A stretch of 64,000 bases of DNA, taken from NCBI GenBank assembly GCA_022448345.1, contig JAKVCB010000006.1:11083-75082 (forward strand), written 5' to 3'. The translations under genes and the position numbers were made by a program. The notes under the pieces are model-generated. The model ran no database searches. It was not told the DNA's origin and saw only the letters and a list, made by a program, of their open reading frames with translations. The DNA comes from Pirellulales bacterium (lineage in GTDB: Bacteria > Planctomycetota > Planctomycetia > Pirellulales > Lacipirellulaceae). Positions 8,840-60,237 of the stretch are shown here, in pieces (position 1 is the first letter of the stretch; each line of letters opens with the position of its first letter).

Positions 8840-8919
8840 TGGTCTGTTGGTTAGCGCGGTCACAGGCCGAGTGATGATGTTCGTTCCTACCTGCGAATCT
8901 TTTCCTGGAAAGCGGTGTT

Positions 8920-27765: not shown

Positions 27766-27777
27766 TGGATGGCGCGA

Positions 27778-35900: not shown

Positions 35901-36484
35901 TGGGCACCTCCTCCTTCGAGCGGCTGGGCACCTGCCGAGGGCTTGCGGAACCAGGTTAACAGTTTTTGGTTTCCCCAACCCCAGGCATCGCCATTGGCGT
36001 AGACATAGGTCTCGGCGGCGCGGCGGGTACCCCCGGTGCCTGCTTGTTGTCCGCTGTTTCCAGTTCCCGTATTTCCCGCCCCAAGCACAATAGCTTCTTG
36101 TCCGTCTTCGATGCCAAAATCAAGGTCATAAAGGGGAACTGGATTGATCCCGGTCAGGGGGCTTGAAAGTTTTCCGACACCAATATCTCCCCAACTGGAA
36201 TGGCGATGTTGTTCGACAATGCTCCTGGTCCCGGCCGCTGTTGAAAAGGAGATGTTTCCACTGAGCACATGGCCGGCTGTGAGAATCCAATTGGGGGAGA
36301 TGAGAGTGCCGCTACCGATCCACCCGCTGCCAGAGATGAGGCCACCCTGGGGATGGGTCGAGTTGGCCAGGTGGGTGTAGGACGAATCGGGCGTATCGTG
36401 GCGAATCGTGATCGCCGATCCCGGCTGCACCGCAAGGATAAATACGATAAAAAACCCTGTGATGATATGTCGCACCATCAGCAA
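32942..36484 (-). CDS. Surface protein: trypsin-like S1 serine protease, three copies of a 276-aa beta-strand repeat module, a dockerin-like loop and a PEP-CTERM anchor
   Basis: Catalytic triad context LTAGHVL (His), WGDIGVGKL (Asp) and GDSGGAVLL (Ser). Three repeats start DFQW..SG.WHNS.SWTP.G.PNG and contain PATVREI.LDGSSSYRLGG. The C-terminus is GDYNSDGVVDAADYTVW ... VPEPASLLVGLWIALIGIPVRNRFR. Confidence 0.8.
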   Translation of the reverse strand: MLMVRHIITGFFIVFILAVQPGSAITIRHDTPDSSYTHLANSTHPQGGLISGSGWIGSGTLISPNWILTAGHVLSGNISFSTAAGTRSIVEQHRHSSWGDIGVGKLSSPLTGINPVPLYDLDFGIEDGQEAIVLGAGNTGTGNSGQQAGTGGTRRAAETYVYANGDAWGWGNQKLLTWFRKPSAGAQPLEGGGAQGDSGGAVLLNVEGTYAIAGVMSQAWSGGSGGDVIGKYDTGGVYIRSAPINDWILQYATDAEVVSVGPPATDFQWNNLSSGNWHNSGSWTPSGIPNGDDHTVVFTGAGPLATTVVMNFPATVREITLDGSSSYRLGGTHKLTLAANTGAASLTVTGGNHIWTAPVAATTSTTIDIATGAELTLEGTFDFLNQTVTKSGSGHLYLDSETTTTFGTFQHNNGFLGGNGALNGDLTLAAATVTPGHGIGQLSVTGDFTMGSGSALEIEIGGTSASQFDTLQVGENAYLNGTLAVALTDNYYPDLGERFSILQATSIANSGVVLGGPDGDKFKLVYSSGELVLESTAMPLPTDFQWAGSSGNWHNSASWTPAGVPNGDDNTVVLTGAGSSVTTVTMNSPATVREINLDGSSSYRLGGNRTLTLDADTGFAALTVTGGSHNWTAPVAIDRSTTIDIAAGAELTLEGTFDFENQTVTKSGAGRLYLDSDTTTQSGAFQHTGGYLGGDGVVNGDLLTSSATVAPGHGIGQLSVTGDFTMGSGSTLEIEIGGTSTNHFDALQVGENAYLNGTLAVTLTDDYYPDLGERFSILQAVSIANSGVVLGGPDGDKFKLVYSSGELILESTAMPLPTDFQWAGSSGSWHNSASWTPAGIPNGNDNTVVLTGAGSSVTTVTMNSPATVREINLDGSSSYRLGGNRTLTLDADTGFAALTVTGGSHNWTAPVAAEATTTIDIATGAELTLEGTFDFENQTVTKSGAGRLYLDSDTTTQSGTFQHNGGYLGGDGVVNGDLLTSAAMVAPGHGIGQLSVTGDFTMGPASALEIEIGGTSATEFDALQVGENAYLNGTLAVTLMGDYYPDLGDRFSVLQAVSIANSGVVLGGPDGDKFKLVYSLGELLLESTVTGPAVLPGDYNSDGVVDAADYTVWIDQLGTATLPNRDPSATGPVGQFDYLVWKNNFGATGTENTAAVPEPASLLVGLWIALIGIPVRNRFR
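33190..35680 (-). repeat. Three tandem in-frame copies of an 828-bp (276-codon) coding repeat
   Basis: The landmark gtagaccagttt(a/g)aacttgtctccgtcagg recurs at 33251, 34079 and 34907, a period of exactly 828 bp. The two promoter-distal copies share a run of about 165 bp with no mismatch (33762-33928 vs 34590-34756). Confidence 0.9.
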
Positions 36485-41300: not shown

Positions 41301-41852
41301 AAGATAACCGTCATTATCATGGTCAGCCCAACTGGCTCCGCGACTCATCTGTGTAGGCAGCGAGGGAAAATTGGCGACCGAAAAACTGTTGCCCGAATTG
41401 TTGCGATACAGTTCCTGGGCGCTGAACGCATAGAAGTCGAGCCATCCGTCGTTGTCGTAGTCTCCCCATAGTCCATCCACATTGGAGCTACCGTTTAACT
41501 TGGATCCCGGTTCGAGAGTCGCTGTCGAAAAATTAACGCCACTGTTGTTGCGCAGGAGTGTCCCGTAGAAACTGAGGTCCACAAACCCATCGTTGTCGTA
41601 GTCTCCCCACGCCAACTGGTTGGTTGAAGCGAGGTCTGGCATGACGGTCGCAGTCACGTCGGTAAAGTCTCCCAGCGCAATTCTTGCAGAAAGTAAAACG
41701 ACCAGGCTCACCCATCGGAGAAGGTAACCACCACAGATGGTTCGATCGTTGGTGACCAGGGGTTCTTGCATAACGATCAAAGCCCTATGGCGCGAGCATG
41801 CACAGACGATTTCCCTGGCCCCGATGTTTGGGGCCGAGTAACCCGAATTCAT
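38379..41852 (-). CDS. Surface protein: FG-GAP/VCBS repeats with an ASPIC/UnbV-like domain (CRTAC1-like), two copies of the 276-aa module, a dockerin-like loop and a PEP-CTERM anchor
   Basis: Repeated Ca-loop motifs WGDYDNDGFVDL, WGDYDNDGWLDFY, SADFDRDGDIDVYV and LGDYDNDGDLDLFF. HWLKLKMVGDG..NRDAVGTQVRI is UnbV-like. Two modules carry P(A/V)(T/S)VREITLDG(S/T)SSYQLEG. The C-terminus is GDYDGNGLVDAADYTVW ... IPEPMTLALMAQLVFISSLVSRRHE. An alternative start lies at 41771. Confidence 0.8.
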   Translation of the reverse strand: MNSGYSAPNIGAREIVCACSRHRALIVMQEPLVTNDRTICGGYLLRWVSLVVLLSARIALGDFTDVTATVMPDLASTNQLAWGDYDNDGFVDLSFYGTLLRNNSGVNFSTATLEPGSKLNGSSNVDGLWGDYDNDGWLDFYAFSAQELYRNNSGNSFSVANFPSLPTQMSRGASWADHDNDGYLDLYTGGYEIWGHANYSDIILHNNLGTGFSNTWTQPTPRPGRGITSADFDRDGDIDVYVSNYRLLPNQLQVNDGSGIFSEQAGSYGVQGGVANGHWGHTIGSAWGDINNDGEIDLFVGNFAHDAGYSGPQRQPESRFLRNRGPAQGYTFEDMGQGGVGWQESYASPALGDYDNDGDLDLFFTAVYPGDTPRLYRNNGNWNFTDVTAAEGLSGIHVTYQAAFADYDNDGDLDLATGGTLFRNDTHNSHHWLKLKMVGDGDTVNRDAVGTQVRITSGGQTFMRQVEFGTGEGNQNEPTLHFGLGNIVGPVDLDILWPGGTTSQVEDVHLDQLHLIHFSPATDYAWNTSGGSWHNSSSWSPAGVPNGSNNTVAFSGAMTSVTTVTVDSPVSVREITLDGSSSYQLEGDQTLNLDATTGTARLIVTGGSHTWTTPVTAETQTSVEVHAGAELTLAGRLDFENQQVIKSGSGRLYLDSGFTAQAGTLQHNGGLVGGNGVVNGDLTVGSAAVAPGHDLGQLTVAGDFTMGSNSTLEIEIGGTSAGQFDTLHVDQRAYLNGTLSVTLTDNFFADLGEQFPVVQSTSVANQGITLGGPDAGKFKLVFGAGQLLLESIAPPPPTDYQWVASSSLWHNPANWSPAGIPNDDKHRVAFAGAGSPVTTVQIDSPATVREITLDGTSSYQLEGDQMLTLDADTGSAQLTVAGGNHRWTTPVTAATSATVDVATGAELTLEGLFNFENQTVTKSGAGRLVLDSDLVHQTGTFQHNAGLLGGEGIVNGDVTVDAATVGPGHSVGTLTVKGDFTMGSESVLEIEIGGTSAGEFDTLEVLQNAYLRGQLAVTLTDNYSPNLGEQFSILEAGSIANYGITLDGPDADKFTLVFTAGQLLLESTLAGLPGDYDGNGLVDAADYTVWRDRLGTTTLPNRDPTATGPVGQFDYLVWKTNFGATETGRSATIPEPMTLALMAQLVFISSLVSRRHE
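38650..40290 (-). repeat. Two tandem copies of the same 828-bp module family found in 32942-36484
   Basis: The gtgccag landmark (the W-H-N codons on the minus strand) occurs at 39423 and 40251, a period of 828 bp. The protein repeats align with those of the trypsin-like gene. Confidence 0.8.
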
Positions 41853-47125: not shown

Positions 47126-47291
47126 GTAAGTTTGAGGGCGATTTTACGAGTTGCTTGGCAGATGTCATCAAGTGTGCATGTCCATTGCGGGAAGATGCCT
47201 CGTGGGGGCAATTGGGCGGTCCGAGTGGCTCCCTGTCGTTAGAAGCAGATCTGGTCCAGTCAACGTTTTACAATTTTCCCTGATTGATCTA

Positions 47292-50200
47292 ATGCCAAAA
47301 CGGTCTGTTCCTAATTGCTCCTTTTCCGATCGCCGGCGGTTTGTGTTCGAGCGACTGGAACCACGTCGTTTGCTGACTGGGACAACACTCTTTTTCACCC
47401 AGGACATCACCGGCAGTCATGATCAGTTGCTGTCGGTCGAGGGTCTCGTGCGCGGCAGCGGCACCGTTGATCTTGCCAGCCAGCCTGGTTATCTGGCAGT
47501 TGAGACGGGTGACTCTGGGTTGAATGTGGGAGTCATTGACGCCAAAAATATTGCGGGTCAGAACGTGGTGGTGGTAGGGGGGGACCTCGTCAGTGCGTAT
47601 GACGGGGACGACATCCACACTCAAATTGGCTCGACTTGGGATCCTGATGCAGCACAAACGGTTGCAACAGTGGCCGACTCGATCGTGGTTATTACGGGTG
47701 GAGGAGGAGTTCGGCGGCTTGACAGTGGCCTGGTCCTTGGTGCCTCCCACGATCTGGCTGGCACCAGTTTGACTCGGCTTGCCGTTGGTGATACGCAGAT
47801 CGCCATTGGTGACTCCCTTGGAGTAGGGCGGATTCTTGATGTTGGCCTGAACGTGGTGGGAAGCGTTGATGTCAATGGTTCCAACAACTTTCCGATTACG
47901 GCTGTCGCCGCCGGGAGTGTGGGCGATGTCTCCGATGCCGCCTATTTTGCCCACAGTATTTTAGATGGCGCAGGCAACATCATCAGTGGTACAGGCCTGC
48001 TTTATGACAGTTCTGAGCCTGGTGCGATTTCAAGTCCAGGCCGGCTACTGGGCACCAACGGTGCCCAACATGGAGTTGTGCCGGCCGTCATTGTCGACGC
48101 AGTAATTGGCGATAGTGACGCTGAGCGCGTTGGCAACGAGATTGTTGTGGCCAGTTTCAACCCGTTGGTGAATCATGCACCGGGTGGGGTTTTGGGTGAG
48201 ATTTCTGCAACCGCAGGGGCCCTGGTGGATTTGGGAAAATATCACAGTGTGAACAACCACATCGCTGGGATTGCTGTGGGGCCCTATGGCAATGCCACCA
48301 AAGATTCAGTCATTGAGTTTGGTGCGAGTCCCTGGAATGGTGACACTCGTCCGGCCGTTGATCATTGGCAGGCATTTGATGATGGTCCTGGCGTGGAAAG
48401 CCCTCCACAAAATCTAAACTATTTGTTGTGGCACAGCGGGGCGAATCGTGCAGAGATTCGCGATGGTGTCATTGGGGAAATCAGCACCAATGGCGATGCG
48501 ACCTCGACCGAGTTTGTCCAGGTTGGTCCTCTTTATGGGACTCCACTTTCGGGCAATGGGTCAGATACCACGCTTGGTTCGAGTTCGATCATTGAGATCC
48601 AGAACACTAACAGTGGTAGTGGCAATCTGCAGGAAATCACCGTCGCCGGCGAGATCCTTACGAGTGTCGCCCTGGCCGATATTTTGGGTGAAGATGGTCT
48701 CAAGGAGATTGTTGTCGGTGCCGAAAGTGGGAACGTGCTGGTCTACAGCCACACAAACCTCTCCAGCCCATTTGTGCTGGCTGGCTCTTTGGATCTTGGA
48801 GGTGAAGTCCTTGAGTTGGCAACGCTTGCAGGAGGCGTCCCCATAGCGGCGCCTGCCGCAGGCGTTGATGCATTGGCCATGGGTGACTTCGGGTCGAGAA
48901 CCGACCAGATTGTGATTGCCCGCGAGACCTCCGCGGACAGTAACGACGTGCTGATTCTATCAACCGGCGCGTTGGATCCGGGCGTTGATGTCGCAGTTGC
49001 CGGTGGGCCAACTGCCGGCGGGACCGCACATGGGCTGGCACTGGGACCATTTCAGAGTGGTTCAATGGGCAATGAATTGCTTGTGGGATTGACCGACCAG
49101 GCGGTGGTCGGTGGCAATGGACATCACGTGTTTTACACACTCTCTGGAAACAGTGGTCAGTATTCCCTGGAGCGACCGATCAGCGATGTGGCTGCAGGAG
49201 ACCTTAATGGAAACGGGGCGGTTGATTTCGTTCTCACGGGGCTCAACAGCGGTAACGAAAGCGGCTTTGGTCAAGGTTCGCTGGTGTTCGAAGCGAGCGG
49301 TGGGTCTGGCGTCGTGCTCGACTCGCCGGGCCTGGTGGGAACTCACCATCCACCATCGTTTTTGGCGGTGGCGATTGGGAATTTGGATGCCGACAGTGAC
49401 CAGGAGTTGGCGCTGGTGGGCGATGATTTTGTGCGGGTGCTGGACAACAACGGAGCAGGGCAGTTTGCCGCGGTGCCGATGCTACAGTCCAGTTCCTTGG
49501 GAAATGGGGCCCGGTTTGTGGATGTGGTAATTGCCGACGCCGATGGTGATGCGGCCAACGAGGTGATCGCCATTACCGATTTTGGCACAGTTTACATGTT
49601 TGGGCACGAGACCGTCGGTGACGCGGCTTCCCCGTTTTCCTCGGCGCCGATTGGTGTGTACAGTGCCGGGGGCGGGCCGTTGTTGGGTGTGGCAGCACTG
49701 GCGCAACAGCCCGAGCCAGGGGTCCTTGGCCGTCACATCTTTTACAACAACTCTTCGTTTGACGGTAACAACCCGCTGGCCAATTCCAGCGATGATCTGG
49801 CGATTGCGACCGACAAAACTGCGTTGTTGCCTGCCCAGCAGGCGACATTTGCCAACTACACCAGTTTTTCCAAAGGAATCAACGGGATCTTCGTCGACGT
49901 TTCGGGTCTTGCCAATCCGCTGAATCTGGGGCCGGCTGATTTTCAGTTTCGAGTTGGCAGTGGGAGCGATTCGACCTCATGGGAAGCGGCTCCACAACCG
50001 GTCAACGATATTGCCGACGGAATTCGGCTTGGGGCAGGCGTGGAGGGTTCCGATCGTGTAACGCTTATCTGGAGTGACCAGGCGATTACCGGTCAGTGGC
50101 TGGAAGTGACAATCAAGGCGACTTCCAATACGGGATTGTTGCAAGATGACATTTTCTATGTAGGAAATGCAATTGGCGAAACGGGGAACTCAGGTGGGGA

Positions 50201-53200
50201 TGCCCTGGTGACGTTGTCCGACCTTGAAGGGGCGCTCAACCATTCCCGCGGTCCTTTTGATAGGGCTTCAATTACCGACATCTATGATTTCAATCGGGAC
50301 CGGCTTGTAGGTGCTCAAGATGGGATCTTAGCGCGCAGCAATCTTTCCAGCGCTGTGGGCGAATTGGAGTTGTTGGCTGCTCCTCTAACTGAAGGTGTCG
50401 CATTTCGTATTACCGAAACCGAAGATGTGTGGCTTCAACTGGAAGACCCATCGGGTAAAACCTGGAGTTTTGAACATTTTAGTGATTCCGGTATGGAGAT
50501 CGACTCTGCTCTGAAAATCGGTGTCGATGGATCTCCCCTGGATGTTTACCTGGCAGAACACCCTGGCGGAATGCGTTTGTATTTATGGGAAGATGGGCGG
50601 GTGGTACCAGATATGCCTCACACCCATATCAAGCCAACGCTGGCGGTTTGGGGTGACATGCTGGTAGGGGACATATCTTCTTTGGAAGATAACCCGATGA
50701 CCCTGTTCATGCGGGAGCAGGAAGACCTGAGCGCATCGGCAACGACCAGTTTTTTCTCAGCTGCCCATGGGATTAGCGATGTGGATGGTGGTGCTTCAAT
50801 GGTCTTTCACCCGGATCATCATCGTGATGTCGATACCTGGCCTGGCGATCCAGTTGATCATCCCCTAAGCGGTTCGCTCGAGGTGATTGCCTATGGCCAG
50901 GGCACTGGGGAGCAGGCCAACGCGATACTGTTTAAAACGCGAAGTGGTTCCGGGACGGTTGCAGATCGCATGATGATCAAGGACGGCACCGTGAGCGTTG
51001 ATGGCAACGTGGTTGCAACCGGCAGCGTAATGTCCGGTTCGTCAAGATCTACCAAGGATCACATCGAGGTACTTTCCGGTAGTGAGGCGATAGATCTGGT
51101 CACGGACCTGGAGGCCATTCACTTCAGCTACCTAACCGATTCTGACCAGCCGCGACTGGGATTTGTGGCCGAGGAGGTGCCGGAAGTATTCAGTGCGGCC
51201 GATCGCAAGGGTGTTGACTCGATGGGAATTGCGGCGGCTCTTTCCAGGCTGGTGCAGACCAACGGTGCCCGTATTGAGCAACTTTCCATACAGGTCGAGA
51301 TCGCCGCGTTGCTACCGGGCACCGAAAGTGGGAACTCTGAAGCGCGCCTTGCTACGGACACTCGGTCCGGTTCAGTGGCCAGTGTCACCGGCACCGACAG
51401 TACAACTTTTGCTGCGACTCTGTCACCATCTGTGGCGCCTGGTGGAGAGGATTTTTGGGGTGTAGCGGACGGGCAGGGTATGGTTGTGGCGACCAGTAGT
51501 AGCCTTGATTTGACCGAAGTGTTTCCCCAATCAATTCCCGAAACCAGTGGGCAATGGTTCCAGATGGAAACTGCCGAAGGAGAAAGGTGGTACTTTGACC
51601 ATGCCGAGCTTCCTCACGTTAATATCGACTCCGCATTTCGTATTAGCATGGATAGTTCACCACTGGATTTTTATCTGGAAGATGAAACAGATGGTTTAAA
51701 CATGTACTTGTGGGAAGATGGGCGACCTGTTCCCAACATGCCCCACACCCAGAAAAAACCTACCGTGGCGGTTTGGGGAGACATGTATGCGAGTAACATT
51801 GCCACGATTGGCCGGGATGCAAGGCAGATGTTCCTGCGGGATGAAACGGGCTTGAGTGCATCCTCGGGCACCGTCCTGTTTTCGGCCAACAAGGGGATCA
51901 ACAACACAATCGATGGTGGTGCGGGGATGGTGATTCGTCCTGACCACAATCGGGATCAGGAGTTGTACCCTGGAGAATCCACCGAGCATTATCAGAGTGG
52001 TGCCTTGCAATTGATAGCATTCGGCGATGGGTCTGGCAGTAGGGCCAATGCGGTTATTTTTCAAACTCGCGACGGTCCCGACAGCGTGTCAGACAGGATG
52101 GTTGTCAGTAACAACACCACGATTTACGGCAACCTGGTAGCTACCGGGAGCATCACGCCAGGGTCGAGCCGGGAGCTCAAGCAAGGTATTGAGCCACTCT
52201 CTACCCAGGAGGCTGAAAGCCTTGTCACCGATTTACAGGCAGTGAGCTTCACCTACACGGCCGATCCTGGTCAGCAGCGACTAGGATTCATTGCCGAGGA
52301 GGTTCCTGCTGTTTTTGGCAACGTTCAGCGGAACGGCGTTGATGCCATGGGCGTGGTTGCCGCCCTTACACAGGTGGTCCAAACACAGCAGCTAGAAATT
52401 AACAACTTGCAGGCCGAAGTTGCCGACTCTGCGGGTGCGGAACACCCGGTTGTTGCCGTATCGAGTACGGTCGAAGAGTCTGCGGACTCACCTACCGCGT
52501 TAGCATCGAACCAGGTGGCCAGTGACAGCCAGGATGTGTTAGCAGGACAGACAGAAGCTGCGGTCGAGCAGGCTGGGATGGTGGTGGCGACCAGCAGTAA
52601 TGTTACGCTACCAGAAGTGCCACCATTTCGGATTGTGGACAGCGGTGGTCGTTGGCTGGAGTTGGAGGAGACCGGGGGCAAAACATGGAGCATGGAGCAT
52701 TTCAGCGATTCGTCCCTTGGTATCGACTCGGCTTTACACATACACACGGAGAATTCGGCGCGGGACTTTTACCTGGCCGATGAGCCGGATGGCATGCGGA
52801 TGTATCTGTGGGGAGATGATACCCCGGTTCCCGACCTGCCGCAAACCGGGGCCAAACCTCATCTGGCTATTGATGGAGATATGTTCCTGGGAGATATCAT
52901 CACCAATGGGCGTGGTGCGCTTAGTATGTTCAACCGGGTTGAGCAGCAATTGAGCGCTTCGGCGACGACCACCCTTTATTCAGCCCGCGAGGGTATCACC
53001 AGCGATGTCGATGGGGGTGCCGGGGTTGTCCTGTACCCGGATCACCACCAGGACCTGGAGAGTTGGCCTGGCGATCCAGCCAATCATCCACTCAGTGGCT
53101 CACTCGAACTGGTTGCCTATGGCCAGGGATCTGGTTCCCAGGCGAATGCCATCTTGATTCAGAATCGTTATGGCAACGCGCTTGCAGACCGCATGGTGAT

Positions 53201-53927
53201 CAAGGACGGGACAGTGACCGTTTATGGCGGGATCTTTGCAACCGGCAGTGTGACTCCCGGATCGAGCCGTGCGACAAAAGAAAACATTGAAGGTCTTACA
53301 GCCAGCGAGGCCTTGGAGTTGGTAGCCAGCCTGGAGCCGGTCAGCTTTACCTACACGGCTGATCCTGGCCAGCGGCGGCTGGGATTTGTTGCCGAGGATG
53401 TGGCCGAAGTGTTTGGCACTTCCGGTCGCAAGGCGGTCGATCCGATGGGAATCATTGCCGCGCTCTCGCGAGTGGTACAGACCCAACACGAACAACTAAA
53501 CGAGATCTTCGCGGAGATGGCTTCCTCAACCGTCGTTCAAAATTCGTATACAAGTAGTCTCCAGGACGTGACCCAGACGAAAACCGCGCCCCCGAAAAAG
53601 CTGGACCGCCCATGGTGGCCCACCTCGGTTATTGCCAGCTCGACCTGGGGAATCGGGACACCAGAGGTAAAACGAGCCAACAAAGTCGACCTGCCGGACA
53701 TTCGAGAAGCTGCCCTTGAAGGGGACCTTAGTGAGCGTGGGCTGCGACTGCTGGGAGGGTTGCCGAGCGGGCATGACCGACCAGCGTGGCAGGAAGTCTC
53801 GCAGAGATTCCATCCTGAAAACAAAGAAGCGGTCCAGGAACGTCGTCTTACTGAGGATGAGTTGGCATCGGTGTGGAGTGCCGGGGACGACTGGTTGCAG
53901 GCTCTCAACCAGAGAACTTTTCGTTAA
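47292..53927 (+). CDS. Giant secreted protein (about 2211 aa): LEPRRLL leader, FG-GAP/VCBS-like region, a domain with a dockerin-like loop, then three tandem fibre modules each ending in a Peptidase S74 intramolecular-chaperone domain
   Basis: MPKRS...FERLEPRRLLTG N-terminus. FG-GAP-like loops: DLNGNGAVDFVLTG, IGNLDADSDQELALVG and IADADGDAANEVIAITD. DFNRDRLVGAQD is an EF-hand-like loop. Three S74 motifs are GSSRSTKDHIE, GSSRELKQGIE and GSSRATKENIE, each followed by ..F.Y......RLGF(V/I)AEEV....VD.MG. The ORF track begins at a TTG at 47151. Confidence 0.8.
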   Translation: MPKRSVPNCSFSDRRRFVFERLEPRRLLTGTTLFFTQDITGSHDQLLSVEGLVRGSGTVDLASQPGYLAVETGDSGLNVGVIDAKNIAGQNVVVVGGDLVSAYDGDDIHTQIGSTWDPDAAQTVATVADSIVVITGGGGVRRLDSGLVLGASHDLAGTSLTRLAVGDTQIAIGDSLGVGRILDVGLNVVGSVDVNGSNNFPITAVAAGSVGDVSDAAYFAHSILDGAGNIISGTGLLYDSSEPGAISSPGRLLGTNGAQHGVVPAVIVDAVIGDSDAERVGNEIVVASFNPLVNHAPGGVLGEISATAGALVDLGKYHSVNNHIAGIAVGPYGNATKDSVIEFGASPWNGDTRPAVDHWQAFDDGPGVESPPQNLNYLLWHSGANRAEIRDGVIGEISTNGDATSTEFVQVGPLYGTPLSGNGSDTTLGSSSIIEIQNTNSGSGNLQEITVAGEILTSVALADILGEDGLKEIVVGAESGNVLVYSHTNLSSPFVLAGSLDLGGEVLELATLAGGVPIAAPAAGVDALAMGDFGSRTDQIVIARETSADSNDVLILSTGALDPGVDVAVAGGPTAGGTAHGLALGPFQSGSMGNELLVGLTDQAVVGGNGHHVFYTLSGNSGQYSLERPISDVAAGDLNGNGAVDFVLTGLNSGNESGFGQGSLVFEASGGSGVVLDSPGLVGTHHPPSFLAVAIGNLDADSDQELALVGDDFVRVLDNNGAGQFAAVPMLQSSSLGNGARFVDVVIADADGDAANEVIAITDFGTVYMFGHETVGDAASPFSSAPIGVYSAGGGPLLGVAALAQQPEPGVLGRHIFYNNSSFDGNNPLANSSDDLAIATDKTALLPAQQATFANYTSFSKGINGIFVDVSGLANPLNLGPADFQFRVGSGSDSTSWEAAPQPVNDIADGIRLGAGVEGSDRVTLIWSDQAITGQWLEVTIKATSNTGLLQDDIFYVGNAIGETGNSGGDALVTLSDLEGALNHSRGPFDRASITDIYDFNRDRLVGAQDGILARSNLSSAVGELELLAAPLTEGVAFRITETEDVWLQLEDPSGKTWSFEHFSDSGMEIDSALKIGVDGSPLDVYLAEHPGGMRLYLWEDGRVVPDMPHTHIKPTLAVWGDMLVGDISSLEDNPMTLFMREQEDLSASATTSFFSAAHGISDVDGGASMVFHPDHHRDVDTWPGDPVDHPLSGSLEVIAYGQGTGEQANAILFKTRSGSGTVADRMMIKDGTVSVDGNVVATGSVMSGSSRSTKDHIEVLSGSEAIDLVTDLEAIHFSYLTDSDQPRLGFVAEEVPEVFSAADRKGVDSMGIAAALSRLVQTNGARIEQLSIQVEIAALLPGTESGNSEARLATDTRSGSVASVTGTDSTTFAATLSPSVAPGGEDFWGVADGQGMVVATSSSLDLTEVFPQSIPETSGQWFQMETAEGERWYFDHAELPHVNIDSAFRISMDSSPLDFYLEDETDGLNMYLWEDGRPVPNMPHTQKKPTVAVWGDMYASNIATIGRDARQMFLRDETGLSASSGTVLFSANKGINNTIDGGAGMVIRPDHNRDQELYPGESTEHYQSGALQLIAFGDGSGSRANAVIFQTRDGPDSVSDRMVVSNNTTIYGNLVATGSITPGSSRELKQGIEPLSTQEAESLVTDLQAVSFTYTADPGQQRLGFIAEEVPAVFGNVQRNGVDAMGVVAALTQVVQTQQLEINNLQAEVADSAGAEHPVVAVSSTVEESADSPTALASNQVASDSQDVLAGQTEAAVEQAGMVVATSSNVTLPEVPPFRIVDSGGRWLELEETGGKTWSMEHFSDSSLGIDSALHIHTENSARDFYLADEPDGMRMYLWGDDTPVPDLPQTGAKPHLAIDGDMFLGDIITNGRGALSMFNRVEQQLSASATTTLYSAREGITSDVDGGAGVVLYPDHHQDLESWPGDPANHPLSGSLELVAYGQGSGSQANAILIQNRYGNALADRMVIKDGTVTVYGGIFATGSVTPGSSRATKENIEGLTASEALELVASLEPVSFTYTADPGQRRLGFVAEDVAEVFGTSGRKAVDPMGIIAALSRVVQTQHEQLNEIFAEMASSTVVQNSYTSSLQDVTQTKTAPPKKLDRPWWPTSVIASSTWGIGTPEVKRANKVDLPDIREAALEGDLSERGLRLLGGLPSGHDRPAWQEVSQRFHPENKEAVQERRLTEDELASVWSAGDDWLQALNQRTFR
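51039..51300 (+). other. Peptidase S74-like intramolecular chaperone autoprocessing domain, copy A1
   Basis: SSRSTKDHIEVLSGSEAIDLVTDLEAIHFSYLTDSDQPRLGFVAEEVPEVFSAADRKGVDSMGIAAALSRLVQTNGARIEQL matches the S-D-x-R-x-K-x-N-I ... GfIAQEV ... vdy..l pattern of tail-spike/endosialidase C-terminal domains. Confidence 0.75.
52164..52422 (+). other. Peptidase S74-like intramolecular chaperone autoprocessing domain, copy A2
   Basis: SSRELKQGIEPLSTQEAESLVTDLQAVSFTYTADPGQQRLGFIAEEVPAVFGNVQRNGVDAMGVVAALTQVVQTQQLEINNL. Confidence 0.75.
53262..53520 (+). other. Peptidase S74-like intramolecular chaperone autoprocessing domain, copy A3
   Basis: SSRATKENIEGLTASEALELVASLEPVSFTYTADPGQRRLGFVAEDVAEVFGTSGRKAVDPMGIIAALSRVVQTQHEQLNEI. 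Confidence 0.75.
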
Positions 53928-53964
53928 ATAGGGTGGGTCATTACCATGGCCGATTTGTGTTGAA

Positions 53965-54834
53965 TTGATGCGATACTTTTTGTTCAACTTGATGGCGTTG
54001 TTTGCGATGTGCGGGGCCTCTCTGGAGGCTGCCGTGATCGATGTGGGCAATCACCTGCTGGCTCCGAATCTCTCGGGCCAACAGGTGGAGTTGTACGTTG
54101 CGGGTGGAGAACAGATTGCCGGAATCGATTTTTTTGCACAAGTTGGCGATGGCGGTCCGGAACTGGTGAACGTCGGCTTGCCAGCCGGCACCGATGGCCC
54201 TGAGATCACTGCGGTCGACTTGAAGAGTGGAACCATTTTTGCGCCGACTGGTGCCCAACAGGTGGAGCAACAGCGGTTTGGAGTTGAACAGGTTTTCTTT
54301 GCAGCCGTGGCGATTAGCGACCCACCGCCGGCGGCGCAAACAGTTGCCGCCAGTGGCCTTTTTGCCCGTCTTACTGTCGACACGACCGGTTTGACCGAAG
54401 GAACTTTCGATTTGCTCCTGGCCGATGTCTTGCCAGAAATCGATGGAGGTCCTTTTGCAACCAGCCTGGTTGCCGACGATGGAAATTTGCACCCCCTCAC
54501 TATCATCAATGGGACCCTTTCGATTAGCGGTAGTAATCTCCCGGGAGATTACAATTCTAATGGCGTTGTCGACGCTGCGGACTACACCCGGTGGCGCGAC
54601 CAACTCGGGATGTCGGTAACGCTGGTGAATGAAAATCCAGCGGCGACCACTCCCGGACTGGTGGACCAGGAAGATTACGTTTACTGGAAGAGTCGCTTCG
54701 GCGCAACCGTCGGGAGTAGCTCGACGGCTGCCGTGCCAGAACCGTTCTCCTGGTTGCTGGTGTTGTGTGCGATGGCACTGCTTGGAATCGGACGGTCGAA
54801 CTGGCTGGATCTTTCTCGCAATCGCAAGTTCTGA
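53965..54834 (+). CDS. Small surface protein: signal peptide, cohesin-like beta-sandwich region, dockerin-like loop and PEP-CTERM anchor
   Basis: Signal MMRYFLFNLMALFAMCGASLEA. The cohesin-like assignment of QQVELYVAGGEQIAGIDFFAQVGDGG ... GLFARLTVDTTGLTEGTFDLLL is weak. GDYNSNGVVDAADYTRW is a canonical D-x-N-x-(N/D)-G-x-V-D-x-x-D loop. VPEPFSWLLVLCAMALLGIGRS is a PEP-CTERM tail. Confidence 0.7.
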   Translation: MMRYFLFNLMALFAMCGASLEAAVIDVGNHLLAPNLSGQQVELYVAGGEQIAGIDFFAQVGDGGPELVNVGLPAGTDGPEITAVDLKSGTIFAPTGAQQVEQQRFGVEQVFFAAVAISDPPPAAQTVAASGLFARLTVDTTGLTEGTFDLLLADVLPEIDGGPFATSLVADDGNLHPLTIINGTLSISGSNLPGDYNSNGVVDAADYTRWRDQLGMSVTLVNENPAATTPGLVDQEDYVYWKSRFGATVGSSSTAAVPEPFSWLLVLCAMALLGIGRSNWLDLSRNRKF

Positions 54835-54964
54835 TCCGCCGGTGCGCAGCGGACGCCGTATGCTCCTAAAAGAGAGGGTCCGTTGCCTCCCGGGAGGTGG
54901 TGGGTGAGAATGGTCTCTAAACGGTAGTAGTTCAAGTAAATTGCGCGGATAGGGTACCAAGGTG

Positions 54965-57900
54965 ATGATTGTCAAAAAGTGGTTGGTCTCTTTAGGCATG
55001 TTGGCATGGGTATGGGGTGTCGCCGAAACTCAACTGGGTTCTTTTGGGCAGAGGATGATCGCCAGCGGTCAACAACTCCGACAAGTTCAACCAGTGGGCG
55101 CTCAAGACCGGGTCGGGGAGCCTCCATTTCGCATTACGGAAATCAAGAGCCGGTGGATGCAATTTCAGGAGCCTCTGGGAAAGACATGGAGTTTCGAAAA
55201 TTTCCGTGATCGCGAGATGGATATCGACGGGTCACTGAAAATCGGTATCGAGAACTCGCCACTGGATCTCTACCTGGCCGATGTTCCCAGGGCATTCCGG
55301 CTCTATCTGTGGGAAGATGGCAGGCTGGTTCCCGACATGCCGCACACGCACATCAAGCCCACGCTGGCCGTATGGGGGGACATGCTGGTGGGGGATATCT
55401 TTGCGATCGAAGACAACCCAATGACAATGTTCATGCGGCAGGAGAAAAACCTGAGCGCATCGGCAACGACCAGCTTTTTTGCAGCCAGGCTGGGAACCGG
55501 CACTGACATCGATGGTGGTGCGGCGATCGTCTTGCATCCAGACCACCATCGTGACCTGGAGGCGTGGCCTGAGGATCCGACCGATCACTCCCTGAGTGGC
55601 TCGCTGGAATTGATTGCCTACGGCCAGGGAGTGGGGAAACAATCCAACGCAATCGTTTTTAAAACGCGCAGTGGCCCTGGCAAGTTGGCTGAGCGGATGA
55701 TTATCAAGGATCACGAGGTTCATGTTGATGGTAACGTCGTAGCAACCGGAACGGTTACGGCTGGATCCTCCAGGGCGTACAAGCAAAATATGGAACCCCT
55801 CTCTGCGGTCGAGGCCGCCCGGTTGGTGACTGGCCTGGAGGCGATCCACTTCCATTACAAGGCCCAGCCCGACCAGCCGCGGCTTGGGTTCGTGGCCGAG
55901 GAAGTCCCCGAGATTTTTAGCGCAGCCGGTCGCAGGGGAGTTGACCCAATGGGAATCGTGGCCGCCCTTCTGAGGCTGGTGCAAACCAACCGTGCGCGAA
56001 TGGACCAGCTTTCGGCGCAGGTCAGGGCAGTTTCGGAAGCCAACCGTGCGGGCTTGTTGGCGTTGGCCGCTGCAAGCGAACCTCCTGTGGTGGCAGCGAG
56101 TCAGGTTGATTTGGCCGAACGGGTCCCGCCGTTGATCCGGGAGGTCAACGGTCAGTGGTTCCAACTGGAGACTGCCCAGGGAAAACGGTGGCATTTCGAT
56201 CACGTTCATCTTCCTCGAATGAACATTGACTCTGCCTTGCGAATCAGTCTCGACCGCTCGCTGTTGGACTTTTACCTTGCGGACGAGGCCGATGGATTGC
56301 ACATGTATTTGTGGAGAGATGGTATGCCCGTTCCCAACATGCCGCGGACCGGTAAAAGACCGACCATGTCGCTTCGAGGAGACATGTTTGTGGGAAATAT
56401 CGCTACGATCGGTCGCCAGCCAAGAGACATGTTTCTGCGCGAGGAGACTGGCCTGAGTGCCGCATCAGGTACGGTGTTGTTTTGCGCCGGCGAAGGAATC
56501 AACCACTTGAAAAATGGTGGTGCCGGGATTGTCATTCGTCCCGATCACCATCAAGACCTGGAAGTTTGGCCAGACGATCCGGTTGATCATTACCAGAGTG
56601 GTTCATTGCAATTAATCGCCTTTGGGGAAGGGGCCGGTAGCAGGGCCAATTCGGTCATTTTTCAAACGCGTGACGGTCTGAATAGCACGGCAGACCGCAT
56701 GATGGTGAACGAAAATGTAACAATTTATGGCAACCTGACGGCAACCGGAAGTATTACTCCCGGATCTTCCCGGGAGTTCAAGAAGAACGTCAGGCCACTT
56801 TCTGGCGCCGAGGCTGCCAGCCTGGTTGCAGATTTGAGAGCGGTGAGTTTTTCCTACAAAGCCGACCCCCACCAGCGGCGGTTGGGCTTCATTGCCGAAG
56901 AAGTCCCTGCTGTGTTCGGTACGGCCGGGCGCAATGGGGTCGATGCAATGGGCGTGGCGACGGCCTTGGCGCAGGCGGTAAAGACCCAGCAGCTTGAAAT
57001 CGACAACCTGCGATTCCAGATCCATGGGTTGGCAGATGCCAATCCCTCCGCACGGGGTGCAGGGGGCGAAAACATTGGCGCGACTGCCGAGCGGCCCAAC
57101 CAGAGTTCCCAGGGGTCACCTACCGTTGAAAAAACCGCGATTGCAACAAGTACTAACGTTTCCTTGCCCAAAATTCCTCCTTTTCAGATTTCAGGGAGTG
57201 GCCCGTGGTTGGAACTCGAAGAGACCAAAGGCAAAACATGGTCGTTGGGATATTTCAGGGACCTGGCAATGGGCATCCCGTCAGCTTTGCAGTTGCAACT
57301 GGAGGATTCGGCGCGGGACTTCTATCTGGCGGACGAGCCAGGTGGCATGCGGATGTACCTGTGGGAAGATGGTACGACGGTTCCCGATTTGCCGCAGACC
57401 GGTGCAAAACCGCATTTAGCCATTGGGGGAGATTTTTTCCTGGGAGACATTATCACCAATGGCCGTGCCGCGCTGCGCATGTTCAGCCGGGTGGAAGGTA
57501 AATTGAGTGCGTCGGCTACCACCACGCTTTACGCGGCCCGGGATGGAATCACGAGCGACGTAGACGGGGGAGCGGGGATTATTATGCATCCCGACCATCA
57601 CCACGATCCAACCAGTTATCCTGGGGATCCTGTAGAGCATCTGCAGAGTGGCTCACTGGAACTGGTTGCCTATGGCCAGGGAGAGGGTGCGCAGGCAAAC
57701 GCTATTTTGGTCCAAAGCCGTGCGGGTGATGCGCTGGCCGATCGGATGGTGATCAAGGATGGAACTGTGACCGTTGTTGGCAATATTTCTGCCACCGGCA
57801 GCGTTATTGTGGGGTCAAGCCGCGCGACGAAAAATAACATTCAAGCTCTTTCTGCCAGGGAGGCTTTCGCGTTGATGGCAGGTCTTGAGCCTATGAAATT

Positions 57901-58201
57901 TTCCTACAAGGCCCAGCCCGACCAGCCGCGGCTTGGTTTTATTGCCGAGGAGGTGACCAACGTATTTGGTACCCCGCGCCGCAAAGCAGTCGATCCCATG
58001 GGCATCACCGCGGCCTTGACGCGGGTCGTGCAGGCACAGCACGAACAACTTAACCACCTTTTTCACCAAGTAGGGGCTTTAAGAAACCTGCAGGGAGCAG
58101 CTGCCCAAGGAGCAACCGGGGAGCTTCCGTCAACCGGCACGCAGCCTCGCCGGACCGGCCAATCCGTTGCACCGGAAAGCACCGCACGGGACAATGGTTG
58201 A
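54965..58201 (+). CDS. Secreted polyprotein of three tandem fibre modules, each ending in a Peptidase S74 intramolecular-chaperone domain
   Basis: Signal MIVKKWLVSLGMLAWVWGVAET. Three modules are collinear with A1-A3. S74 motifs are GSSRAYKQNME, GSSREFKKNVR and GSSRATKNNIQ, each followed by RLGF(V/I)AEEV. Confidence 0.8.
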   Translation: MIVKKWLVSLGMLAWVWGVAETQLGSFGQRMIASGQQLRQVQPVGAQDRVGEPPFRITEIKSRWMQFQEPLGKTWSFENFRDREMDIDGSLKIGIENSPLDLYLADVPRAFRLYLWEDGRLVPDMPHTHIKPTLAVWGDMLVGDIFAIEDNPMTMFMRQEKNLSASATTSFFAARLGTGTDIDGGAAIVLHPDHHRDLEAWPEDPTDHSLSGSLELIAYGQGVGKQSNAIVFKTRSGPGKLAERMIIKDHEVHVDGNVVATGTVTAGSSRAYKQNMEPLSAVEAARLVTGLEAIHFHYKAQPDQPRLGFVAEEVPEIFSAAGRRGVDPMGIVAALLRLVQTNRARMDQLSAQVRAVSEANRAGLLALAAASEPPVVAASQVDLAERVPPLIREVNGQWFQLETAQGKRWHFDHVHLPRMNIDSALRISLDRSLLDFYLADEADGLHMYLWRDGMPVPNMPRTGKRPTMSLRGDMFVGNIATIGRQPRDMFLREETGLSAASGTVLFCAGEGINHLKNGGAGIVIRPDHHQDLEVWPDDPVDHYQSGSLQLIAFGEGAGSRANSVIFQTRDGLNSTADRMMVNENVTIYGNLTATGSITPGSSREFKKNVRPLSGAEAASLVADLRAVSFSYKADPHQRRLGFIAEEVPAVFGTAGRNGVDAMGVATALAQAVKTQQLEIDNLRFQIHGLADANPSARGAGGENIGATAERPNQSSQGSPTVEKTAIATSTNVSLPKIPPFQISGSGPWLELEETKGKTWSLGYFRDLAMGIPSALQLQLEDSARDFYLADEPGGMRMYLWEDGTTVPDLPQTGAKPHLAIGGDFFLGDIITNGRAALRMFSRVEGKLSASATTTLYAARDGITSDVDGGAGIIMHPDHHHDPTSYPGDPVEHLQSGSLELVAYGQGEGAQANAILVQSRAGDALADRMVIKDGTVTVVGNISATGSVIVGSSRATKNNIQALSAREAFALMAGLEPMKFSYKAQPDQPRLGFIAEEVTNVFGTPRRKAVDPMGITAALTRVVQAQHEQLNHLFHQVGALRNLQGAAAQGATGELPSTGTQPRRTGQSVAPESTARDNG
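55766..56026 (+). other. Peptidase S74-like intramolecular chaperone autoprocessing domain, copy C1
   Basis: SSRAYKQNMEPLSAVEAARLVTGLEAIHFHYKAQPDQPRLGFVAEEVPEIFSAAGRRGVDPMGIVAALLRLVQTNRARMDQL. Confidence 0.75.
56765..57021 (+). other. Peptidase S74-like intramolecular chaperone autoprocessing domain, copy C2
   Basis: SSREFKKNVRPLSGAEAASLVADLRAVSFSYKADPHQRRLGFIAEEVPAVFGTAGRNGVDAMGVATALAQAVKTQQLEIDNL. Confidence 0.75.
57815..58072 (+). other. Peptidase S74-like intramolecular chaperone autoprocessing domain, copy C3
   Basis: SSRATKNNIQALSAREAFALMAGLEPMKFSYKAQPDQPRLGFIAEEVTNVFGTPRRKAVDPMGITAALTRVVQAQHEQLNHL. Confidence 0.75.
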
Positions 58202-58248
58202 GAGTCACAAGTCGACGAAGTGGATACCGAGGACGGAGTAAAATCGCG

Positions 58249-60237
58249 ATGATTGTGAGAAAGTGTTTTGAGTTATTGATACTGTTGGTCCTGGTAGTTG
58301 GTTTGGTTGCCGACCTGCTGGCAGATGAATCTTTGTTCGTTGGCTCTGAGGATAACGAGCCCTCAGCGCTGAACCGGCCTCTGCTGGCGGGAGAAACTTA
58401 CCAGGTAACCGTTCCGGCAACACTTGACCTGGCCGAGCGGGCCCGTTTGGGACTCAATCACTTCACCCGTAGTATTAGCGAAGCCCACAATTACGAAATG
58501 TATTGGGGCGTACAGCCCTTGGGATTATCGCCCGAGATGATGGATTTGATCGGTCTTCCCGGCGAATCGAAATGGGGTTGTGCCTTTGGCGAATACAACA
58601 ACCCGTTCATGGTTATGTGGTGGTCGCCGCTGCACGCCTGTCAACCCAAGGCACTTGAAGTGATGGCGATGGAGCGGTTGATGAGCGGCGATGCGATGTA
58701 CTTGGGTCGTGAAGCACGAATGTTGCGTGAGCTTGCCTCGTACGTACATGACGATGGCCTGTACTACGTTCCTGATGATCCTTCCAAAACCTGGCTTGGC
58801 CCGTCAGAAAACAGGCCGCACGCAAACATGCATGGCCAGGGACGGATGATGCGGGCGATGATCATCTGGTATCAGTTTACGGGGAACCCGGTCTGGAAAG
58901 AACTCGTTGATCGAATGGTTGATGGCCTCGACCGAATCGCTGTACACAAGCAGGACTACGCCTACTTTCCCGTACACGGTTGGATTGATGTCGAGTACTT
59001 TCGCTCCAGTTACACCCGGCAAGGGTGGAAAGATACCATCGAACCAACCCATGAAAAATTTGGCGAAGAAGGATCGCTCTTTAACCACCAGGGCCATATT
59101 CCCGGCGCGCTGGCGAATTGGTTTTTGTTGACAGGTAATCAAAAGGCACTCGAGCTTTCAGGAGAGCTGGTCCGGTTCTATACCAAGCCGCAATTCTGGG
59201 CTGACTGGGAAAAAGGCGAATATCCGGGCATCGTTGGCGCCGAACACGCCCACTGGCGAGGGCACTTGCATGGGCACGTTAACGTACTGCGGGCGATCCT
59301 CGAATATGCAATTGCTGCCAACGACACACGGCTGATGAATTTTGTGCGCGATGGGTACGAGTGGGCCCGGCAAATGGAAATTGCCCGCATCGGCCTGGTG
59401 GGCGACGGGCAGGGCTGCGGGTGCGGGCGGCTGATTGGTTTGGCGGTGAAGCTTTCTTATGCAGGGGTGGGGGATTACTGGGAGGATGTTGATCTGTACA
59501 TTCGCAACCATGGCGTGGAGATGCAATTTACGCCCGAGGATGCCCGCTTTTTGCACGCGCTGGGCCAGGGTAAGCCTGAAGCGCCCGAGTTTCCCGGTGC
59601 AACTAGCAAGGACGTGGTCGAAACGACCATCGGCGGCTATTCCAACCATGTCCCACCTTACAAAACCAGCACCAGTCTCTGTTGTTCTCCGCATGGCAAC
59701 ATGGGGCTGTTTTACGCCTGGGACGCCACGCTCCGGTACGAAGACTCGGTGGCAAGAATCAATCTGCTCTTGAATCGGGCATCGCCATGGCTCGATATCG
59801 ACAGTTACCTGCCCTTTGAAGGGAAGGTCGTGCTGAGAAACAAACAGGCCACAGAAGCGTTTGTGAGGATCCCGCTTTGGGTCGACGGAGACAAGATTTC
59901 TTGTACTGTCCGTGGTGAACCGGTCTCGTGGAACTGGTTCGGCAGGTACCTGCACCTGCGATCGATTGCACCAGGAGATGCCATCGTGCTTCAATTTCCG
60001 GTTGAGGAAAGAACCGAAACGTGGACCAAACCGGACCACCAGTCGTACTTGATCACGGCAATTCCTGGCGGCACAAAATTTGATTTGCGTTTTCGCGGGA
60101 ACACAGTTGTGGAGGTAACCCCGCCATTGATGAAAGATTCTCCCCTCTATCGCAATCGCCTTCAACAATTTTCGGGCGAAGTTGCACCGATGCGTACCGT
60201 CACCCGGCAGGTTACGCCACTGGTTTTGAAGTGGTGA
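58249..60237 (+). CDS. Exported/anchored hypothetical protein, possibly a DUF1680/GH127-like (alpha/alpha)6 glycoside hydrolase
   Basis: Hydrophobic N-terminus MIVRKCFELLILLVLVVGLVADLL. About 660 aa, with a GCGCG motif roughly 86 aa upstream of LCCSPHGN. That spacing is reminiscent of the E-x-C ... C-C-P-x-N zinc/catalytic cysteines I recall for GH127, but the assignment is tentative. An alternative TTG start at 58198 overlaps the upstream stop codon. Confidence 0.4.
   Translation: MIVRKCFELLILLVLVVGLVADLLADESLFVGSEDNEPSALNRPLLAGETYQVTVPATLDLAERARLGLNHFTRSISEAHNYEMYWGVQPLGLSPEMMDLIGLPGESKWGCAFGEYNNPFMVMWWSPLHACQPKALEVMAMERLMSGDAMYLGREARMLRELASYVHDDGLYYVPDDPSKTWLGPSENRPHANMHGQGRMMRAMIIWYQFTGNPVWKELVDRMVDGLDRIAVHKQDYAYFPVHGWIDVEYFRSSYTRQGWKDTIEPTHEKFGEEGSLFNHQGHIPGALANWFLLTGNQKALELSGELVRFYTKPQFWADWEKGEYPGIVGAEHAHWRGHLHGHVNVLRAILEYAIAANDTRLMNFVRDGYEWARQMEIARIGLVGDGQGCGCGRLIGLAVKLSYAGVGDYWEDVDLYIRNHGVEMQFTPEDARFLHALGQGKPEAPEFPGATSKDVVETTIGGYSNHVPPYKTSTSLCCSPHGNMGLFYAWDATLRYEDSVARINLLLNRASPWLDIDSYLPFEGKVVLRNKQATEAFVRIPLWVDGDKISCTVRGEPVSWNWFGRYLHLRSIAPGDAIVLQFPVEERTETWTKPDHQSYLITAIPGGTKFDLRFRGNTVVEVTPPLMKDSPLYRNRLQQFSGEVAPMRTVTRQVTPLVLKW

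Follow-up and report, generated by a model that had tools for sequence, protein, structure and literature searches.

The locus at positions 47292-60237 of the window, by which we mean the whole 64-kb stretch of Pirellulales DNA analysed here, encodes two large proteins, designated ORF1 and ORF2 (open reading frames 1 and 2), each of which carries three copies of the Peptidase_S74 intramolecular chaperone domain (ICD), every copy preceded by a body domain. We confirmed that these six S74 ICD modules in two non-phage proteins are a real feature and not a product of chance. The S74 chaperone is known as a single-use device, present in one copy per chain, which nucleates a trimeric fibre and then removes itself, and its reiteration at internal positions appears to be undescribed and very rare. 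The novelty is this reiteration, as non-phage and internal S74 domains are already known. The reading towards which we incline, with slightly better than even confidence, is that ORF1 and ORF2 are exported non-phage polyproteins of the fibre type that would trimerise in register and cleave themselves at the G|SSR bond of each module. The two genes are arranged as follows.

47292..53927, + strand: ORF1, 2211 aa, with an FG-GAP-containing N-terminal region of ~1030 aa, three body-ICD modules and a 128-aa tail
54965..58201, + strand: ORF2, 1078 aa, with a signal-peptide-like N-terminus (MIVKKWLVSLGMLAWVWGVAE), three body-ICD modules and a 35-aa tail

The reading frame of ORF1 is open from 47151 to 53927, and its ATG at 47292 is supported by the alignment of an orthologue that begins at 47307. 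ORF2, whose frame is translated from 54962, is identical to the database protein P0001 and has the same ATG start. An FG-GAP_3 repeat was detected within the N-terminal region of ORF1 by Pfam hmmscan (E 3.6e-8), and residues 14-30 of the same protein match the 'Planctomycete extracellular' motif PF07595 (Planc_extracel) below the threshold (E 0.018). Judging from the signal-like N-terminus of ORF2 and the Planc_extracel-like motif of ORF1, both proteins are probably exported.

Peptidase_S74 domains and their catalytic residues

Pfam hmmscan detected PF13884 (Peptidase_S74, 'chaperone of endosialidase') in three stretches each of ORF1 (E 5e-27) and ORF2 (E 1e-26), with scores of 94.4 and 93.2 bits against a gathering cut-off of 22 bits. 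These six significant matches bear out the preliminary description of the locus, which had recognised six S74 modules in two proteins by reading the sequence. When a profile of the six modules was searched against the PDB, only two structures were matched, both through the ICD, namely the ICA domain of MYRF (7dc3, E 0.002) and a phage tail fibre (8jov). In the alignment with 7dc3, the first serine of the GSSRxxK motif falls on the nucleophile position, which is an alanine in the crystal construct, and the lysine falls on K592, while the F-x-Y of the modules falls on Y615 and Y617 of MYRF (Y-R-Y), the aromatics of its 'cutting hole'. The MYRF residues S587 and K592 are the equivalents of S911 and K916 of endoNF, and the substitutions S587A and K592A abolish cleavage (PMC8326128). 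MYRF is cut between P586 and S587, for which the trimer is needed, as a subunit's 'cable' passes through its neighbour's 'donut' (PMC8326128). By homology with this cut, the scissile bond would here be G|S-S-R, one residue upstream of the S|S-R bond that had been assumed at first.

The serine and the lysine at +5 are kept in all six copies, as had been noted previously, and the conservation extends to the whole family, where S-S-x-x-x-K is found in 23 of 23 modules despite an overall divergence of ~45%. The F and Y of F-x-Y are invariant in the six modules of the window and kept in most homologues, a few of which have F/Y-I-N. That the serine, the +5 lysine and the aromatics are invariant or nearly so throughout the 23 modules argues for selection on catalysis. 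From these residues we infer self-cleavage at G|SSR, and it is in this sense that ORF1 and ORF2 are called polyproteins.

Organization of the modules

Each module consists, in order, of a body of ~205 aa, an ICD of ~105 aa and a low-complexity linker. The G-S-S-R-x-x-K motif occurs six times, with its glycine at residues 1249, 1624 and 1990 of ORF1 (counted from the ATG at 47292) and at residues 267, 600 and 950 of ORF2 (from the ATG at 54965), and RLGF(V/I)AE(E/D)V lies ~40 aa past each of the six motifs. The ICD begins ~12 residues ahead of GSSR; the motif, first described as the end of a module, therefore marks the start of the ICD, and the number of six modules stands. A six-frame scan of the window with the body and ICD profiles returned exactly six bodies and six ICDs, all within ORF1 and ORF2.

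50388..50999, + strand: body of ORF1 module 1, aa 1033-1236 (hmmsearch with the body profile, iE 4e-109)
51000..51311, + strand: S74 ICD of ORF1 module 1, aa 1237-1340; predicted cut G1249|S1250; Ser codon 51039-51041; Lys1255 codon 51054-51056
51513..52121, + strand: body of ORF1 module 2, aa 1408-1610 (body profile)
52125..52442, + strand: S74 ICD of ORF1 module 2, aa 1612-1717; predicted cut G1624|S1625; Ser codon 52164-52166; Lys1630
52611..53222, + strand: body of ORF1 module 3, aa 1774-1977 (body profile)
53223..53540, + strand: S74 ICD of ORF1 module 3, aa 1978-2083; predicted cut G1990|S1991; Ser codon 53262-53264; Lys1996
55115..55726, + strand: body of ORF2 module 1, aa 51-254 (body profile)
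55727..56044, + strand: S74 ICD of ORF2 module 1, aa 255-360; predicted cut G267|S268; Ser codon 55766-55768; Lys273
56114..56725, + strand: body of ORF2 module 2, aa 384-587 (body profile)
56726..57043, + strand: S74 ICD of ORF2 module 2, aa 588-693; predicted cut G600|S601; Ser codon 56765-56767; Lys606
57167..57775, + strand: body of ORF2 module 3, aa 735-937 (body profile)
57776..58093, + strand: S74 ICD of ORF2 module 3, aa 938-1043; predicted cut G950|S951; Ser codon 57815-57817; Lys956

The two linkers of ORF1 measure 67 and 56 aa and those of ORF2 23 and 41 aa, and across the homologues the linkers are of low complexity and range from 23 to 110 aa. Such composition and variable length would suit tethers that join independent trimeric segments. 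The ends of the four linkers, just ahead of bodies 2 and 3, share a short motif, found at aa 1395-1407 (MVVATSSSLDL) and 1763-1773 (MVVATSSNVTL) of ORF1 and at aa 375-383 (VVAASQVDL) and 725-734 (AIATSTNVSL) of ORF2, the linkers being otherwise unconserved. This motif may be the body's first strand, hitherto unrecognised, or it may be a second site of processing or recognition.

Ancestry and distribution of the three-module arrangement

The modules of one protein share 44-50% identity with one another. Of the module pairs compared, those at the same position in ORF1 and ORF2 were 63-65% identical and the others 42-50%. When 23 modules from all relatives were placed in a neighbour-joining tree, three positional clades (M1, M2 and M3) were resolved, each containing ORF1, ORF2, P0002, P0003 and P0004, which argues that the ordered triplet is the conserved, ancestral unit and is older than the duplication that gave rise to ORF1 and ORF2. 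This three-module block had been missed in the preliminary description, which took the single module as the unit. The single-module relatives form the sister clade of M1 in the same tree.

An exhaustive HMMER search with the module profile, covering 1.84 billion representative proteins, gave 6969 matches at E <= 0.001, nearly all of them through the ICD. The architectures were counted in the best 150 matches and their close relatives, together 152 proteins, which were rescanned with separate body and ICD profiles.

109 of 152 proteins: ICD only, in a single copy
28 of 152 proteins: body without ICD
6 of 152 proteins: body with one C-terminal ICD
3 of 152 proteins, query included: three body-ICD modules, in complete proteins
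a few of 152 proteins: multi-module fragments

Complete relatives have either one module or three, and two or four were never seen. The canonical layout of a body with a C-terminal ICD is present in the single-module relatives (P0007, P0009, P0010, P0153-P0156, L020 and L021), which indicates that the triple form derives from ordinary S74 fibres. The relatives that have only the body run on into fibre repeats (G-x-V-G-I-G-T) and coiled coils, which indicates that the body is a modular fibre element. A distant metagenome protein from ENA, P0006 (928 aa, 26% identity), carries three body-like repeats in its chain and lacks an ICD altogether.

Further scans of genomes and metagenomes yielded only two species known from metagenome-assembled genomes (MAGs) and two extra loci, both with a single module. 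Among 185,579 species-representative genomes, the family was found only in the Planctomycetota MAG CB27_Tmax.39 and in one uncultured Planctomycetaceae MAG, where an ORF1-type gene with two modules runs up to a contig end and a third module lies at a contig start. Another three-module protein of the ORF1 type (P0003) came from a Logan assembly. The family is very small and confined to a handful of marine Planctomycetota MAGs, and its immediate impact is limited on that account.

With a broader ICD profile, one ICD was found in 237 of 242 sampled S74 proteins, the other five being members of this family. Where a protein of at least 250 aa has one ICD, the median distance between the end of the ICD and the C-terminus is 7 aa, and in each of the eight viral loci sampled the only ICD is C-terminal. 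ORF1 and ORF2 depart from this canonical terminal layout, as four of their six ICDs precede another module and the third ICDs precede the tails of 128 and 35 aa. A homology search with the broad ICD profile gave at least 120 matches, and the 120 listed were all fragments or stand-alone ICDs of 100-195 aa, which say little on tandem occurrence. Literature searches found no description of tandem, two or multiple S74/ICA domains in a protein, nor of Peptidase_S74 in Planctomycetes, in agreement with the earlier statement that no tandem internal arrangement was known in a bacterial surface polyprotein. The rarity of multi-S74 proteins is judged here from protein samples and the literature rather than from InterPro/Pfam architecture tables.

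The ICD sub-type itself (GSSRxLK…GFIAEDVP…DRKGV.PMD) is represented by at least 1461 relatives among metagenomic and MAG proteins, drawn from many phyla (Nitrospirae, Elusimicrobia, Aminicenantes, Deltaproteobacteria and Planctomycetota among them). A pattern-based, non-exhaustive scan found it in 8 of 2.9 million viral contigs, in seven at <=34% identity and in the eighth over 20 residues only. This ICD sub-family may be mainly cellular.

Proposed assembly and self-processing

In the mechanism that we propose, three copies of the whole chain would associate in register, and each ICD would homotrimerise with its counterparts in the two partner chains and nucleate the folding of the body directly upstream, a role modelled on the endosialidase, phage T5 pb1, MYRF and the MAT fibres of Bdellovibrio. 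The assembled Ser/Lys dyad would then cut between the glycine and the first serine of G|S-S-R-x-x-K. Being internal, the ICDs would divide each precursor into four pieces, which in order would be an N-terminal piece with body 1, ICD1-linker-body 2, ICD2-linker-body 3 and ICD3-tail; for ORF2 these would span aa 1-267, 268-600, 601-950 and 951-1078. The predicted masses of the four ORF2 pieces are 29.6 kDa (about 27 kDa once a signal peptide of ~24 aa is removed), 36.4, 36.8 and 13.7 kDa, and the new N-termini would read SSRAYK, SSREFK and SSRATK. The outcome would be three different trimeric body pieces at a fixed 1:1:1 ratio, of which the second and third would keep the previous ICD and linker at their N-termini. 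Trimerisation in register, like the roles of the partner genes discussed below, is inferred, and it is the best-supported reading in view of the conserved catalytic signature, the descent from single-module fibres and the freely variable linkers.

Several points weigh against this mechanism. The retention of a foreign N-terminal ICD by bodies 2 and 3 after cleavage is without precedent, and homotrimerisation in register alone leaves the constant module number of three unexplained. The body domain gave no Pfam, PHROG or PDB sequence match from which its fold could be assigned. AlphaFold2 (AF2) prediction of one module from an alignment of 15 sequences was unusable, with a predicted local distance difference test score (pLDDT) of 40.8 and a predicted template modelling score (pTM) of 0.25, and full ORF2, with a shallow alignment, was modelled at low confidence (pLDDT 47.4, pTM 0.30), so that neither model is informative on the geometry of the trimer or the active site. 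A Foldseek comparison of the ORF2 model with the PDB gave no match at E <= 0.001.

In the model of full ORF2, a pLDDT of 70-80 is confined to the ICD helices and the opening ~85 aa of each body. A helix of 30-41 residues is predicted at the end of every ICD (pLDDT ~70-77), as in the coiled coil of MYRF and endoNF. The start of each body was predicted with confidence as a beta unit of 6-8 strands, at aa 55-140, 397-470 and 740-820 of ORF2 (55127-55384, 56153-56374 and 57182-57424). Going by this model, each body may consist of an autonomous beta-sandwich followed by an intertwined part that depends on the trimer.

If the proposed mechanism is true, ORF1 and ORF2 would be the first self-resolving 'fibre polyproteins', in which several trimeric fibres are made from one gene at fixed stoichiometry, each with its own chaperone. 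The uses of S74 would then extend beyond the terminus of phage tail fibres, the MAT fibres of Bdellovibrio and the internal switch of MYRF, and the modules would be a natural example of orthogonal self-cleaving trimerisation tags placed in tandem, which could interest protein engineers.

The constant number of modules would find an explanation if M1, M2 and M3 of a single polypeptide folded back into one trimeric body/ICD assembly, a single-chain pseudo-heterotrimer in which cleavage trims the ICDs. S74 domains and the fibres upstream of them are obligate trimers, every complete multi-module protein has exactly three modules, and from a time before the duplication of ORF1 and ORF2 each of the three positions has kept its own identity and its place in the order. 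In addition, P0006 carries three body repeats in one chain without an ICD, and the poor AF2 prediction of a module alone is what would be expected of a fold that needs partners. Nevertheless, we consider this alternative unlikely. The model of full ORF2, with its low scores and no confident packing between modules, lends it no support, and a parallel trimer would need each linker to run back along the whole module, while the linker from M1 to M2 has only 23 aa in ORF2 and P0002, with linkers of up to 110 aa elsewhere. Moreover, all three-module proteins stem from one ancestral triplication, so that their always having three modules counts as a single event, and the single-module relatives, as the sister clade of M1, must homotrimerise. 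That an obligate homotrimeric phage-type fibre and its chaperone were turned into a monomeric asymmetric 'trimer', with the ICDs cutting cis-trans round the ring and the faces free to evolve separately, would explain the counts of one or three modules and the positions that stay distinct and ordered, and is in our estimate quite unlikely. If the pseudo-trimer were true, it would be a rare example in nature of a fibre fold whose symmetry was broken through gene fusion.

As compared with the self-cleaving chains that we favour, the ICDs could instead trimerise in register without cutting and serve as internal clamps, giving one long segmented fibre of three bodies with ICD knots and flexible hinges. 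This alternative had already been raised in the preliminary description. The predicted C-terminal helices of the ICDs together with the low-complexity linkers would give such a beads-on-a-string fibre, and the cleavage of MYRF can reportedly be regulated or inhibited, to go by the title of a 2026 preprint. However, the dyad and its neighbouring aromatics would hardly be so conserved among the 23 modules at their level of divergence, and all experimentally tested S74 domains with an intact dyad cleave, which makes uncleaved clamps an improbable reading.

Chromosomal context

The 20 neighbouring ORFs belong to ordinary chromosomal families, which include MatE, a MacB/HlyD/OEP efflux set, GFO_IDH_MocA oxidoreductases, FAA hydrolase, PQQ/malectin and trypsin, besides ceramidase, FG-GAP/ASPIC, ADH, TauE, transketolase, DUF1501, rhomboid and BNR_2. 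Capsid, terminase, portal, baseplate and integrase families were absent among these 20 ORFs, neither a tRNA nor a PADLOC defence-system match was found in the window, and the guanine-cytosine (GC) content is even over its length. The gene order transketolase, ORF1, small gene, ORF2, ORF3, DUF1501, rhomboid and BNR_2 is kept on a 46.7-kb contig of the MAG CB27_Tmax.39, at a protein identity of 65-78% for ORF1, 73% for ORF2 and 90% for ORF3. The chromosomal setting, as it was first described, is thereby upheld, with synteny in other Planctomycetota MAGs. In the syntenic MAG (L001/L002, 1684-8534), the orthologue of ORF1 is split in the gene calls into three ORFs (505, 1205 and 544 aa), whereas ORF2 and ORF3 are intact, which points to frameshifts, assembly errors or pseudogenisation of the split gene.

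The locus could also be viewed as the remnant of a degraded prophage, tailocin or mobile element with duplicated tail-fibre genes, as PHROG tail-fibre families match the ICDs (phrog_1980, E 1e-9 to 1e-11) and relatives are publicly annotated as 'tail fiber domain-containing protein'. These PHROG matches are, however, restricted to the ICD part. The body is absent from the PHROGs and gave no tblastn match in 50,697 phage genomes, in which the ICD gave four weak matches to tail-fibre C-termini at 27-35% identity, and the ICD sub-type was rare among the viral contigs scanned. Together with the ordinary chromosomal families, the syntenic gene order and the uniform GC content, this makes a phage remnant very improbable and effectively excludes it.

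The split ORF1 orthologue in L001 could hint that the tandem copies are false products of repeat mis-assembly or annotation, but this is effectively excluded and has hardly any probability, because the modules of one protein are too divergent for repeat mis-assembly (44-50% identity) and the same architecture occurs in independent assemblies from different samples (L001, L002, L003, L023, L024 and L010).

Comparison with known S74 systems

The closest cellular parallel considered is the mosaic adhesive trimer (MAT) family of Bdellovibrio bacteriovorus, 13 members of which end in one S74 domain (PMC10769870). The MAT protein Bd3182 is a chromosomal S74 fibre that cleaves itself at S782, and the substitution S782A blocks the cleavage; MAT proteins also have a conserved domain, ~130 aa long and beta-rich, right after the signal peptide (PMC10769870). 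Similarly, ORF1 and ORF2 are chromosomal, non-phage, secreted-like fibre proteins with an S74 chaperone/protease that has the Ser/Lys motif, and variants of the same fibre that lack S74 are found in both cases, as NS74 in MAT and as the body-only relatives here. In contrast to the one terminal S74 of MAT proteins, there are three per chain in our locus with four of six internal, its body has no detectable likeness to solved structures, the deposited MAT tips included (PDB sequence search), and the host is a Planctomycete and not a predator.

The ICDs of phage endosialidase, tailspikes and T5 pb1 (MEROPS S74, PF13884) share with the present ICDs the Pfam domain and the dyad of Ser and +5 Lys, and the C-terminal helix that AF2 predicts here would be a further likeness. 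They are, however, single and terminal, whereas the ICDs here are reiterated, internal and chromosomal. ORF1 and ORF2 differ from phage tail fibres and tailspikes in that no virion structural genes lie nearby and their body has no phage homologue among the 50,697 records searched.

MYRF/MrfA, which provided the best PDB sequence match (7dc3), resembles ORF1 and ORF2 in having an internal ICA whose cleavage frees an N-terminal trimer from the C-terminal remainder. The earlier view that the S74 domain is single and C-terminal in characterised proteins is not universally valid as to position, as the ICA of MYRF is internal, though it is single there as well. MYRF differs in being eukaryotic, with one ICA per chain, a DNA-binding domain of the NDT80 type and a transmembrane segment; in ORF1 and ORF2, Pfam found only PF13884 and FG-GAP_3, and there is no hydrophobic segment past any ICD. 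Fibrils terminated by an ICA have been proposed in alveolates in the literature.

In viral and bacterial self-processing polyproteins, one translation product gives several mature proteins through an embedded protease. The likeness of ORF1 and ORF2 to these is a functional analogy, as each cut would here be made by its own single-turnover, trimerisation-dependent module and not by one protease acting at many sites. The locus represents a variant of cellular S74 fibres rather than a new category, and the proposed self-resolving polyprotein is plausible.

Partner genes and neighbouring secreted proteins

ORF1 and ORF2 lie on the + strand in the order ORF1, small gene, ORF2 and ORF3, all four genes having the same orientation.

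53968..54834, + strand: small secreted protein gene, 288 aa; N-terminus resembling a signal peptide, a repeat of dockerin-like type and, at the C-terminus, an anchor of the PEP-CTERM type (AVPEPFSWLLVLCAMALLGIGR)
58249..60237, + strand: ORF3, 662 aa, with a hydrophobic N-terminal segment; it starts 45 nt past the end of ORF2

Neither of the two has an S74 domain, though both lie inside 47292-60237; the range first given for the S74 cluster was accordingly right for the S74 genes and also spans these two. A scan for promoters and terminators over 46.7-60.5 kb gave fewer sites than shuffled sequences and was uninformative on operon structure.

The VPEP-hydrophobic-basic tail (PEP-CTERM type) of the small protein was read directly from the sequence, and its Dockerin_1 match is below the threshold (E 0.05). 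A homologue of the small gene lies directly downstream of an ORF1-type gene in L001, L023 and L009, which makes four lineages with the window. ORF3 is the most conserved gene of the cluster, with 90% identity to g662 of L001, 49% to the gene in L004 and 33% to that in L023, and its relatives adjoin or lie near S74-body genes in these three other loci. It had been taken for a putative glycosidase, for which the basis consists only of sub-threshold Pfam matches of the (alpha/alpha)6 type (GlcNAc_2-epim, the GH127 middle domain and GH76; E 0.04-0.1), and searches of NCBIfam, PADLOC and PDB sequences gave no match. The ORF3 family is unannotated, with members of ~620-1100 aa found in L004 (160-2109 and 12913-21166) and L023 (10627-12492), and L004 has one close relative of ORF3 and three distant paralogues in a row.

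This recurrent neighbourhood suggests that the S74 genes, the dockerin/PEP-CTERM gene and the ORF3-family gene form a functional unit. The S74 proteins themselves lack an anchor, and one possibility is that the dockerin/PEP-CTERM protein and ORF3 supply a cell-surface anchor and a carbohydrate-active component. If the polyprotein reading holds, the combination of S74 protein, dockerin/PEP-CTERM protein and ORF3 family would point to an uncharacterised surface-fibre system of Planctomycetes.

A C-terminal module of ~90 aa is common to three secreted proteins of the window that otherwise differ, namely a trypsin-domain protein (32942-36484, - strand), an FG-GAP/ASPIC protein (38379-41852, - strand) and the small protein (53968-54834, + strand). 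In this module a dockerin-like repeat (…Y..W+..FGAT…) leads into a (V/I)PEP-hydrophobic-basic tail of the PEP-CTERM type, which suggests a sorting system of the exosortase type in this organism. Further upstream, the OEP-HlyD-MacB/FtsX efflux set is encoded at 4153-10931 (+ strand) and a second FtsX/MacB-like pair at 26620-29115 (- strand), both unrelated to the S74 genes.

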